Source: Xanthobacteraceae bacterium (lineage in GTDB: Bacteria; Pseudomonadota; Alphaproteobacteria; Rhizobiales; Xanthobacteraceae). From it: a DNA stretch of 64,000 nt. The stretch covers positions 12,608-76,607 of the forward strand of contig DASSGH010000051.1 in NCBI GenBank assembly GCA_035693615.1. Reading direction: 5' to 3'. The notes beneath the pieces were generated by a model. The model was not told where the DNA came from and ran no database searches. It saw nothing but the letters and a program-made list of their open reading frames with translations. Positions 41,463 through 52,448 of this stretch are shown in pieces (the first letter of the stretch is position 1; each line of letters starts with the position of its first letter). The position numbers and the translations under genes were made by a program.

Positions 41463-41630
41463 CTAGTGCCCGGTTTTCGAAGTTCGTGATACAGCGCGGC
41501 ACCTTCGGGCACGAACTTCGAAAACCAAAGGGCACTAGCGACTCTACGATTCTAGTGCCGCTTTTCGATTTGAAATTCCTAACGCGGACTCGCGGCACAT
41601 GATGCAGGAATTTCAAATCGGCGGCACTAG
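41463..41630 (+). repeat. CTAG-bounded double-hairpin intergenic element, copy A (168 bp)
   Basis: Module 1 (41463-41538) has 26 paired positions. A 13-nt spacer follows. Module 2 (41552-41630) has 25 paired positions. It is 94% identical to 47449-47616 by hand alignment. Confidence 0.9.
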
Positions 41631-41635
41631 CCCGT

Positions 41636-42382
41636 TCAGCGGATGTTCTTGTAGGGCGGGCGCGGGATGCCGGCGTGCGCCGCGCGCAGCGCCGCCGACC
41701 AGCGCTCCCGCAGGTCGTGGAAATACGGCTCCCCTGGCTCGATCCGGAAGTTGAGTTCTGCGTCGCAGACGTCACGTCGCGCGATCAGCACGTCGATCGG
41801 CAGGCCCACGCTGAGATTTGAGCGCATGGTCGAATCGACGGAGACCAGGCCCACCTTGAGGGCATCGTAGAGATCGATGTCGTAGGTGATCGCGCGATCG
41901 AGCACCGGCTTGCCGTATTTGTGCTCGCCGATCTGCAGGTAGGGCGTATCCTGCGTGCATTCGATGAAATTGCCGGCGGCGTAGAGCATGAACAAGCGCG
42001 GCCGCTCGCCCTTGATCTGCCCGCCCAGCAGGAACGAGACGTCGAAATTCACTTCCGAAGCCTGGAGTGCCTCGCCCTCGATCTTGTGCAGTTGGCGGAT
42101 GATGTGGCCGACGCGCTGCGCCGCCTGAAACATGGTCGGTGCGTTCATCAGCGTCTCGGTTTCGCCGGTCTCGAGGTTTTCCCAGCCCTCGCGCAAAATG
42201 CTGACCACAGATTGACTGATGGAGAGGTTGCCGGCCGAGGCGATCGCCATGATGCGCTGGCCTGGCCGAATGAGGACATGCAGCTTGCGGAAGGTGGAAA
42301 TGTTATCGACGCCGGCGTTGGTGCGGGTGTCGGCGAACATCACGAGGCCGTCTCGCACCAGGATGCCACAGCAATAGGTCAT
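41636..42382 (-). CDS. proteasome-type peptidase, Anbu (ancestral beta subunit) family
   Basis: 248 aa. MTYCCGILVRDGLVMFADTRTNAG has Thr directly after Met, so there is no propeptide. It is in an operon with the alpha-E and circularly permuted ATP-grasp genes. Confidence 0.8.
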   Translation of the reverse strand: MTYCCGILVRDGLVMFADTRTNAGVDNISTFRKLHVLIRPGQRIMAIASAGNLSISQSVVSILREGWENLETGETETLMNAPTMFQAAQRVGHIIRQLHKIEGEALQASEVNFDVSFLLGGQIKGERPRLFMLYAAGNFIECTQDTPYLQIGEHKYGKPVLDRAITYDIDLYDALKVGLVSVDSTMRSNLSVGLPIDVLIARRDVCDAELNFRIEPGEPYFHDLRERWSAALRAAHAGIPRPPYKNIR

Positions 42383-45379: not shown

Positions 45380-46012
45380 TTACGCCGGGATTGGAACGTC
45401 GCCGACATCCTTGGGCACTTTGTAGCCCTTCTGCACGGCCGGACGCTTGGCGATGGTCGTGTACCAGCGCTTCACGTTGGGGTACGCGCTGAGGTCGATG
45501 GTCTGCCATTCGTACCGCGACACCCACGGCCAGATGGCGATGTCGGCGATGGAATAACCGTCGGCGACGAACTCGTGTCCGGCGAGTCTGCGGTCGAGCA
45601 CGCCGTAGAGTCGCTGCGCCTCCTTGAGGAAGCGCTCCTCGGCGTAGGGCGCCTTGCCTTTGTTGTATTTCACGAAATGGTGGACTTGGCCGAACATCGG
45701 TCCGGGTCCTCCCATCTGCCACATCAGCCATTCGAGCACGCGGTAGCGCGGCTCGCCCGATTTCGGCAGCAGCTTTCCGGTTTTGTCGGCGAGATAGATC
45801 ATGATCGCGGCCGATTCCATCAGGCTAATGCCGGTGTCGTGGTCGATGATGGCGGGGATGCGGTTGTTCGGGCTTATCTTCAAGAACTCAGGCTTGAACT
45901 GCTCGTCCTTGCTGATGTCGACGGGGTGTGCGGTATAGGGCAGAGCCAACTCCTCGAGCAGGATTGAGGCTTTGCGGCCATTGGGCGTCGTCCAGGTATA
46001 GAGATCGATCAC
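45380..46012 (-). CDS. glutathione S-transferase (YfcG/Nu-class-like)
   Basis: 210 aa, MIDLYTWTTPNGRKASILLEELALPY...ISPNNRIPAIID...ESAAIMIYLA. Confidence 0.8.
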   Translation of the reverse strand: MIDLYTWTTPNGRKASILLEELALPYTAHPVDISKDEQFKPEFLKISPNNRIPAIIDHDTGISLMESAAIMIYLADKTGKLLPKSGEPRYRVLEWLMWQMGGPGPMFGQVHHFVKYNKGKAPYAEERFLKEAQRLYGVLDRRLAGHEFVADGYSIADIAIWPWVSRYEWQTIDLSAYPNVKRWYTTIAKRPAVQKGYKVPKDVGDVPIPA

Positions 46013-46068
46013 GGTTTTCCTTCCTGTGGTCGCGGTTCGACGTGAATGCGGTTTGAAAATTTCGCACG

Positions 46069-46234
46069 CTAGTGTCCCGATTCCGAAGTTCGCATCATGG
46101 TGCTGCAGCCTCGTCTGCGAACTTCGGAATCGAAGGACACTCGCAACTTATTGATCTAGTGTGGCTTTGGTTCAGAAGTCCGCATTTCGGTTTCGCTGCA
46201 AAGAATGATGGGGACTTCTGAACCGCCACACTAG
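46069..46234 (+). repeat. CTAG-bounded double-hairpin intergenic element, divergent copy C (166 bp)
   Basis: It has the same two-module architecture and orientation as copies A and B but a different stem sequence, with paired (compensatory) changes. Module 1 is 46069-46143 and module 2 is 46156-46234. Confidence 0.85.
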
Positions 46235-46327: not shown

Positions 46328-47428
<1,101 letters not shown>

Positions 47429-47448
47429 CGCAGGCCTCCGATATCGGG

Positions 47449-47616
47449 CTAGTGCCCGGTTTTCGAAGTTCGTGATACAGCGCGGCACACTCGGGCACGA
47501 ACTTCGAAAACCAAAGGGCACTAGCAGCTCTATGATTCTAGTGCCGCTTTTCGATTTGAAATTCCTGAGGCGGACTCGCGGCACACCGTGCAGGAATTTC
47601 AAATCGGCGGCACTAG
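47449..47616 (+). repeat. CTAG-bounded double-hairpin intergenic element, copy B (168 bp)
   Basis: Twin of copy A. Ten mismatches in 168 nt, all in the two loops or the spacer. Confidence 0.9.
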
Positions 47617-52360: not shown

Positions 52361-52448
52361 GGCCGCGTGGTGGAACGGTAGACACAGCAGACTTAAAATC
52401 TGCTTCTGGGAAACCGGAGTGCCGGTTCGAGTCCGGCCGCGGCCACCA
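52361..52448 (+). tRNA. tRNA-Leu (anticodon UAA), CCA encoded
   Basis: The acceptor stem GGCCGCG pairs with CGCGGCC. The D arm is GTGGAACGGTAGACAC, the anticodon loop is CT-TAA-AA, there is a long variable arm, and the T arm is GCCGG-TTCGAGT-CCGGC. The discriminator A is at 52445, followed by CCA. Confidence 0.9.

Follow-up and report, generated by a model that had tools for sequence, protein, structure and literature searches.

We analysed a palindromic element, copy C, in a 64,000-nucleotide stretch of DNA from a Xanthobacteraceae bacterium (contig DASSGH010000051.1, positions 12,608 to 76,607). The whole of this stretch is referred to as the window, and coordinates are window positions unless a locus is named; sampled loci from other genomes carry L numbers. 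Copy C was found between two minus-strand genes, and two further copies of the same element, A and B, were found in the window. The features of the locus are as follows.

46069-46234, plus strand: copy C, a complete two-module element of 166 nt, identified from the sequence as read and by the family profile in nhmmer (E = 1.6e-39)
46069-46143, plus strand: module 1 hairpin of copy C, from the sequence, an inverted-repeat search and the fold; 5' arm 46069-46094, loop 46095-46115, 3' arm 46116-46132, AA bulge 46133-46134, outer 3' arm 46135-46143
46079-46083, plus strand: GATTC, a GANTC (CcrM-type) site in the module 1 5' arm of copy C, with its partner GAATC at 46127-46131
46144-46155, plus strand: linker CAACTTATTGAT of copy C, 12 nt, joining the two modules; the family consensus is CAAnnnTATGATT
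46156-46234, plus strand: module 2 hairpin of copy C, from the sequence and an inverted-repeat search; CTAGTGTGGC 46156-46165, TTT bulge 46166-46168, inner arm 46169-46185, loop 46186-46207, inner arm 46208-46224, GCCACACTAG 46225-46234
41463-41630, plus strand: copy A, 168 nt, 5 nt downstream of the stop codon of a minus-strand gene (41636-42382)
47449-47616, plus strand: copy B, 168 nt, lying 20 nt upstream of the protease gene (minus strand, ATG at 47428)
46328-47428, minus strand: trypsin-like/PDZ protease gene, 366 aa, outside the element and lying between copies C and B
45380-46012, minus strand: glutathione S-transferase gene, outside the element and downstream of copy C

The structure of copy C consisted of two bulged hairpins. 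In module 1, CTAGTGTCC/CGATTCCGAAGTTCGCA paired with TGCGAACTTCGGAATCG/AA/GGACACTCG, which gave an outer stem of 9 bp and an inner stem of 17 bp with the AA bulge between them on the 3' arm. In module 2, CTAGTGTGGC/TTT/GGTTCAGAAGTCC paired with GGACTTCTGAACC/GCCACACTAG, and here the outer stem of 10 bp and a perfect inner stem of 13 bp were separated by the TTT bulge on the 5' arm. The inverted-repeat finder returned arms of 17 nt (100%), 10 nt (100%) and 17 nt (94%), together with a 35-nt pairing between the outermost arms of the whole copy, which were 80% complementary. Folding of either strand of copy C gave z-scores of -9.0 and -9.5 relative to dinucleotide shuffles, none of which folded as well, and the predicted fold energies of the copy C hairpins were -94.5 and -91.3 kcal/mol. 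The two modules were related to each other in inverted orientation, as a module 2 profile scored the reverse complement of module 1 at 44.6 bits and its direct sequence at 23.7 bits.

A three-way alignment confirmed the layout given in the first-pass annotation, in which copy C carries two hairpins as in copies A and B. The alignment also bore out the six differences between C and A/B in the 26-nt 5' arm of module 1, every one of which was compensated on the 3' arm, and the decay of the module 1 terminal CTAG to CTCG (46140-46143) was evident in the sequence. The three copies had been described as equal in size (166 nt), which is incorrect, since A and B measure 168 nt. For module 2, the perfect 10 + 13 bp stem and the bulge were as described, and a single G·G mismatch (46176/46213) appeared when the inner stem was taken to 17 bp. 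The same annotation had regarded module 2 of copy C as otherwise unrelated to that of copy A; this was refuted by the alignment and the profile, in which module 2 of C and module 2 of A aligned as one family. Copy C is therefore a homologous member of the family and not an unrelated palindrome. When copy C was compared with the orthologous copy in locus L123, we observed that the window copy had lost one terminal CTAG (CTCG) and that its module 2 stem had acquired the G·G mismatch. Decay of individual copies thus does occur, and in copy C it has begun relative to L123.

Copies A and B were located through the common core CGAAGTTCG and the CTAGTG ends. The family-profile search showed that the full window contained three copies only, all of which sat between minus-strand housekeeping genes. 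Copies A and B differed at 10 positions, none of them in the main stems (Fisher p = 2.4e-5). Weaker profile matches elsewhere in the window were rejected as elements, as no palindromes were present there. We also observed that copy B, with a spacer to the ATG at 47429-47448, was placed just upstream of the GGAGG ribosome-binding site of the protease gene. Orthologues of this protease occur without copy B, so that in the window transcription of the gene must run either through copy B or from inside it.

To define the extent of the family, we scanned reference genomes with an exact pattern in which nothing but CTAGTG and the core was fixed on the two arms, so that the tested stem positions were left free. 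The scan revealed at least 120 loci from many alphaproteobacterial families. Among the matches listed were Bradyrhizobium, Afipia, Xanthobacteraceae, Hyphomicrobium, Devosia and Mesorhizobium, as well as Caulobacter, Hyphomonadaceae, Parvularculaceae, Micropepsaceae, Rhizomicrobium and Magnetospira. A profile made from unambiguous copies then identified 157 non-overlapping elements in 0.93 Mb of sampled loci, namely 131 full two-module elements, 9 solo copies of module 1, 3 solo copies of module 2 and 14 partial copies. Conservation extended to features that the pattern did not impose, namely all of module 2, the positions of the bulges, the linker CAAnnnTATGATT and a palindrome at the loop centre. 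At the unpaired loop centres, most copies carried TGCnGCA, and those of a Mesorhizobium-type subfamily (L037, L084, L102, L052 and L072) carried GATATC. These palindromes occupy alignment columns of about 38-45 and 153-160, and their conservation hints at a possible sequence-specific recognition at the hairpin tip.

The module types were found to mix freely, with 44 types of module 1 and 84 types of module 2 occurring in 107 combinations, which indicates that the elements are true mosaics. A-like and C-like subfamilies neighbour each other in other genomes too (for example in L107). Each copy bears four CTAGs (containing TAG/CTA), and the outer arms, which form the terminal inverted repeats, were on average 71% alike across the family. 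The element thus has the properties of a transposable element of the miniature inverted-repeat kind (MITE): a length of 166-168 nt (below about 300 bp), no coding capacity, many copies, terminal inverted repeats and a filled/empty polymorphism with a target-site duplication of 2 or 4 bp, as empty sites bear one CTAG-like tetramer and filled sites a CTAG at either side. A search of 72,556 plasmids with copy C and a Mesorhizobium-type copy returned no match, a result that rules out only relatives of at least about 85% identity, and only 7 pattern matches (L206-L212) were present in 2.9 million viral contigs. It appears that the family resides essentially on chromosomes. One typical copy was observed in L015 (contig CALFMR010000399.1), a metagenome-assembled genome labelled Acidobacteria; it was much like the copies in the Caulobacterales loci L014 and L030, and the contig is probably mis-binned.

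Covariation was counted on the four-helix structure over 130 full copies and 52 pairs. The positions fixed by the scan pattern carry no covariation information, and the signal comes from the free positions and module 2. Standard pairs were present in 94.9% of the stem cells compared with 81.4% when the 3' partners were shuffled (0 of 500 shuffles reached the observed value), and sliding the partners by 1-3 columns reduced pairing to 27-42%. Both sides had changed in 39 of the 52 pairs (shuffle mean 27.0) and in 948 cells (shuffle mean 297). Up to four Watson-Crick pair types were found at a single position, as at columns 132/180 (AU 49, UA 43, CG 22, GC 11). RNAalifold independently recovered the same inner stems, with 32 of 36 pairs compensated. 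The covariation is overwhelming, and the claim of covariation is statistically sound. The first-pass annotation had proposed a structure-constrained family as opposed to a chance palindrome, with covariation as its mark once many copies were aligned. The signal in 130 copies, far above the shuffles, and the transposon-like presence and absence described below both upheld this proposal.

A selected RNA is expected to tolerate G·U but not the mirror-image A·C. We found that the mismatches of module 1 comprised 22 G·T and 29 A·C, and those of module 2 comprised 82 G·T and 44 A·C, of which 28 G·T cells came from one loop-proximal column. The spacers that hold elements were tandem in 47 cases, divergent in 18 and convergent in 13, which is near random. 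Between co-directional genes, 20 elements ran with transcription and 27 against it, and the module adjoining a stop codon was module 1 in 20 cases and module 2 in 23. When the window was searched with Rfam 15 at the gathering score, only a tRNA passed and nothing was returned for the elements, and a promoter and terminator scan revealed no such site inside them. A sub-threshold match to mir-932, an insect microRNA, on the minus strand at 46068-46141 (26.9 bits against a gathering score of 54) was dismissed as a chance match to a long hairpin; an Rfam search at an E-value threshold likewise gave nothing of relevance, the best hits below the gathering score being chance microRNA hairpins. Given the symmetric mismatches, the lack of orientation bias and the lack of an Rfam family, promoter or terminator, the constraint looks like one on a DNA-level palindrome rather than on a sense RNA. 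The first-pass annotation had left a choice between an RNA, a DNA structure and sibling MITEs; a DNA-level palindrome on a mobile element is favoured, and the strand-specific RNA is not.

Presence and absence at orthologous sites were examined with the protease gene between copies C and B as an anchor, which provided 80 orthologous soil-metagenome loci with 69-95% protein identity. In the window and in L121 and L123, which are its two closest relatives, the copy C site was filled; in L122 and L124-127 it was empty, and the edges were exact. The filled junctions read ...cccgCTAG[TG...CA]CTAGcgtg..., and the empty site read ...ccggTTAGcgcg.... The copy B site was empty in L122-126, where ...cgaTAGacc... 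was found in place of the ...cgCTAG[...]CTAGccc... of the window. An automated flank-joining search yielded four informative independent sites. At the cleanest of these, five empty loci read gttCTAGcgcatg, and the filled loci read gttCTAG[element]CTAGcgcatg. A comparison of a further site, site X, between L142 and L153 was not relied on, as its left flank aligned poorly.

Neighbouring elements in L107, L018, L085 and L079 used one common CTAG. At L079:4100-4599, we observed three full copies head to tail, the third of them inverted, with a single CTAG at each junction; one CTAG per tandem junction is what insertion of new copies into the ends of older ones would produce. In addition, a truncated remnant of about 105 nt, which retained the linker, module 2 and the last part of module 1, was present at L132:6800-6904, 3 nt after the protease stop codon, and at the equal position in L133-L140, L147, L155 and L187. 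Its size is like that reported for Bru-RS, a repeat of Brucella. This remnant represents an independent and older insertion in the same spacer of another lineage.

The orthologous copies at the copy C site diverged more slowly than their surroundings. Between the window and L121, 11 of 93 positions differed in the 3' spacer and 3 of 104 in the element (Fisher p 0.023); between the window and L123, the values were 12 of 93 and 5 of 165 (Fisher p 0.0034); and between L121 and L123, they were 13 of 97 and 0 of 105 (Fisher p 4.6e-5). The flanking spacer thus diverged by 12-13% and the element by 0-3%.

The use of CTAG was closely connected with stop codons. At 43 element ends, belonging to 40 of the 131 full elements, the stop codon of the neighbouring gene was the TAG of the terminal CTAG of the element. 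Examples were seen at L053:4714-4880, L079:7571-7740, L049:4373-4536 and L071:6323-6487, and in L053 and L102 both ends of an element supplied the stops of convergent genes. Eight of the stop-sharing genes were full-length by Pfam; they encode an enoyl-CoA hydratase, FabF, DnaJ, M56 and M17 peptidases, a HAD hydrolase, an aquaporin and a histidine kinase. In Caulobacter ginsengisoli, the stop of a histidine-kinase gene was the CTAG of an element, and the orthologous metagenome locus had TGA and an empty 51-nt spacer. CTAG was scarce: free sites in the sampled loci were about 10 times fewer than expected (305 in 930 kb, where about 3085 would be expected), and sites in the window were about 8 times fewer (26, where about 208 would be expected from a G+C content of 64.7%), with 11 of the 26 falling within the three elements. 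Among non-genic free CTAGs, 51 of 212 (24%) were stop codons, a value near the share of elements located on a stop (roughly 30%). The placement of the elements is thus explained by CTAG specificity together with the loss of gene-disrupting insertions, and an insertion of this kind is harmless to the gene, since the duplicated target regenerates the TAG stop.

We consider it probable that copy C is one member of an extensive family of mobile, palindromic DNA repeats in Alphaproteobacteria, which are small and non-coding. The element is a mosaic of two bulged hairpin modules, inverted to each other, with a short conserved linker and with CTAG bounding every module. Insertion at a CTAG-like tetranucleotide leaves CTAG on each side, through duplication of either TA or the whole tetramer. 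In these GC-rich genomes, many of the surviving CTAGs are TAG stops preceded by C, and about a third of the copies accordingly lie on a stop codon; new copies also target the CTAG ends of resident copies and so give rise to tandem arrays. The stems remain complementary at the level of DNA, with strict Watson-Crick pairs and no difference between the strands. Pairing may persist because propagation requires every module to fold back into a hairpin or cruciform, or alternatively because quasi-palindrome template switching repeatedly corrects the two arms against each other. In that case, A/B, C and other subfamilies would appear as "compensatory" variants of each other, and transcribed copies would form long RNA hairpins as a by-product.

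Mobilisation most likely occurs in trans, and we infer a CTAG/TA-targeting DDE transposase of the IS630/Tc1 or IS5/IS427 type. TAGTG is common to the four arms, as is GAAGTYC at a distance of about 9 nt towards the inside, and a transposase that has two helix-turn-helix motifs could read such a site. The preferred target of IS630 is the TA of CTAG, with duplication of TA; CTAG is the insertion site of IS870 from Agrobacterium vitis; and IS630-family transposases, as in the case of ISY100, bind their inverted repeats with two helix-turn-helix motifs (PMC2170065, PMC13630536). As IS630, IS870 and IS711 use CTAG/YTAR targets, the insertion signature fits DDE transposases. The family resembles IS630/Tc1-type MITEs, such as RUP of S. 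pneumoniae, in being small, non-coding and TA-flanked and in its two-block terminal inverted repeats and insertion polymorphism, and it shares the CTAG preference of IS630 and IS870. In contrast to those MITEs, the halves of this element were near-perfect palindromes, the complementarity within a module was greater than that of the outer ends, and no parent insertion sequence was found.

Several observations weigh against this explanation. The empty alleles at three of the four informative sites were the one-base variants CTAA, CTAT and CTAC, which we read as divergence, as the flanks were 10-16% different between genomes, and the junctions were compatible with duplication of TA as well as of the whole CTAG tetramer. 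The orthologous copies evolved at least 4 times more slowly than the flanking spacer, which a purely selfish, decaying insertion would not do; either selection or gene conversion from sister copies may be responsible. An isolated arm outside the repeats was absent from 1.5 Mb of loci, and no autonomous element with matching ends was seen there. The genes between paired copies were housekeeping genes (MFS, rpsR, rpsF, hisE, fabA, RF-1 and similar), with no transposase among them, and no close relative was carried by the plasmids searched. Furthermore, a model of two transposase-binding ends does not predict outer repeats that are about 71% alike together with a better match within each module, and the freely varying positions still covaried, which argues for base pairing as such. 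Shortened copies in L017 and L113 contained no interrupting insertion sequences, and their neighbours were SDR, amidohydrolase, Rieske and desaturase genes.

The complementarity within the two modules was 0.85 and 0.82 (with the bulges scored as mismatches), which exceeded the similarity of 0.71 between the outer ends. This excess and the covariation at free positions point to fold-back pairing or arm-to-arm correction, so that protein recognition alone does not fit and a single-strand, RAYT-like mechanism stays the main rival. In such a mechanism, each module would be a REPIN-like inverted-repeat doublet that folds as single-stranded DNA and is moved or maintained by a vertically inherited HUH/RAYT-type tyrosine transposase cutting at the CTAG foot. 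It would agree with the strict Watson-Crick covariation, the conserved asymmetric bulge, the conserved tetranucleotide at each hairpin foot and the conservation of orthologous copies in situ, as well as with the class-wide conservation, the coexistence of subfamilies in one genome and the near absence from the plasmid and viral collections. Insertion 3' of a CTAG by a CTAG-ended element would also mimic target-duplication junctions. The REP/BIME and REPIN-RAYT systems of Gammaproteobacteria are similar to this family in their inverted-palindrome mosaic, foot tetranucleotide, compensatory arms, chromosomal location and several subfamilies per genome; the conserved foot tetranucleotide of E. coli REP is GTAG.

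However, REP units measure 20-40 nt, whereas the hairpins here measure 75-79 nt, and the 26-nt arms are not themselves REP-like hairpins. CTAG lies within the stem, whereas the corresponding tetranucleotide lies outside it in IS608 or REP. Unlike REP, the family showed no preference for gene 3' ends beyond CTAG availability, and it was inserted at CTAG with an apparent target duplication, a TA/CTAG pattern that is the classic signature of a DDE transposase. No RAYT-like gene adjoined the copies or lay between them in the sampled loci. We consider the REPIN-like mechanism unlikely. A class-wide, chromosome-resident system of hairpin repeats kept by selection, whether REPIN-like with a dedicated inherited enzyme or an exapted host site, is similarly doubtful in our view; the slow evolution of orthologues, the conserved loops and linker and the lack of close plasmid relatives are compatible with it. 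If it were true, its appetite for CTAG would help to explain the roughly 10-fold CTAG depletion and the clustering of the repeats on TAG stops.

The GANTC sites bear on a further possibility, that the repeats are DNA sites used by a cellular protein, such as CcrM/GcrA at GANTC or a nucleoid- or topoisomerase-type factor as in E. coli BIMEs, and that mobility only spreads them. Elements contained 2.0 GANTC on average compared with 0.64 in shuffles, at three fixed places, one in each arm of module 1 and one in the linker, in which GATTC and CTAG overlap. The hot columns of module 1, 14 and 68, carried the site in 76 and 79 of 130 copies, respectively. This enrichment would suit a host site, as would the low divergence of orthologous copies compared with that of the flanks, the conservation of loop centres and linker despite their lack of pairing, and the class-wide conservation. 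However, at least one GANTC was present in 112 of 130 copies and none in 18, and its presence at the three places was independent (19.9 copies without any expected, 18 observed), which indicates no upkeep of "at least one site". The specific bases of GANTC were as variable as the free middle base, the insertion sites were polymorphic between close relatives, and gene conversion among copies could account for the slow divergence. The association looks like a property of the family consensus and not a maintained feature, and a host function is, in our assessment, quite improbable. The idea of a host function at GANTC sites is said to be the CIR hypothesis of Chen and Shapiro.

A structured RNA with a selected secondary structure (a small RNA, a 3' untranslated region stabiliser or an RNase III site) would accord with the very stable predicted hairpins, with the many copies directly after stop codons, which would be co-transcribed, and with the influence of the comparable repeats ERIC and Correia on mRNA decay (PMC2229807), but it is very improbable, as G·U was no commoner than A·C as a mismatch, orientation was unbiased, the divergent, tandem and convergent spacers (18/47/13) were roughly random, and no Rfam match, promoter or terminator was found.

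We compared the mobile family favoured here with described repeats. The element is a palindromic, MITE-like mosaic repeat of Alphaproteobacteria of an already known kind. To our knowledge, CIR, Bru-RS and RIME have been known for 20-30 years with no mechanism of spread described. These three appear to be the closest described families, as likened through their descriptions and not their sequences. In the parts of the published accounts available to us, CIR, the CcrM-associated intergenic repeats of Chen and Shapiro (2003), are intergenic multi-copy repeats of about 110 bp in Caulobacter, Brucella and other Alphaproteobacteria (PMC2229807, PMC3184786, PMC10969869). As described there, CIR and this family are both strictly intergenic, multi-copy and non-coding, and both consist of two long inverted repeats that form two independent arms with a linker and have TA termini (PMC2229807). 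GANTC stands at fixed places in CIR and in most copies of this family, both are conserved among alphaproteobacterial species, and those parts of the accounts likewise describe no mechanism of mobility for CIR. This family also occurs in Caulobacter (L071, L009 and L080), a host genus of CIR. According to the same descriptions, however, CIR measure about 110 bp with GANTC at the terminal loop, whereas this element measures 166 bp with GANTC in the module 1 stem and the linker.

For Brucella, the available portions of the reports that cite Halling and Bricker (1994) describe Bru-RS1 and Bru-RS2 as palindromic intergenic repeats of 103-105 bp that form single palindromic units, and IS711 as inserting at YTAR with duplication of TA and using Bru-RS as hot spots (PMC3163539, PMC2266754, PMC2267715). 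Bru-RS is given there as 222 copies, about one per 15 kb (PMC2267715). As far as these descriptions go, Bru-RS and this family are similar in density, and the YTAR content of Bru-RS matches the CTAG ends; they differ in that Bru-RS is a single unit of 103-105 bp and this element has two modules and 166 bp. Judged on descriptions, the identity of this family with CIR or Bru-RS is likely.

The RIME1 repeat contains two large palindromes. RIME1 of Sinorhizobium meliloti (Osteras et al. 1995) and Br-REP1/2 of Bradyrhizobium (PMC5082802) are, like this family, mosaic or palindromic intergenic repeats of Hyphomicrobiales. Br-REP1/2 were rejected as the identity of the element, as the published consensus sequences differ from it (PMC5082802), and the Br-REP1 consensus CCGGAATCTCGAGATTCCGG had no match in the window at up to 3 mismatches. 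A full-text literature search with printed stretches of the element sequence returned unrelated papers only. Relative to the accounts of CIR/Bru-RS-like families in the portions available to us, the additions are that the element targets CTAG, reuses stop codons, appears to be constrained as DNA and evolves slowly where it sits.

These results provide a testable picture for one such family, which would be CTAG-specific, harmless on TAG stops, targeted to its own ends with the formation of arrays, constrained as DNA-level hairpins, and slower to evolve than the surrounding DNA. For annotation, the elements should be treated neither as small RNAs nor as terminators, and stop codons can fall inside them. 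The abundance of the repeats and their polymorphism between close relatives matter for assembly and strain typing, and their presence bears on studies of gene expression that concern CcrM sites or operons in Bradyrhizobium-like and Caulobacter-like genomes. Elsewhere in the window, we observed a tRNA-Leu gene (anticodon taa) at 52361-52448, which has no relation to the repeats.

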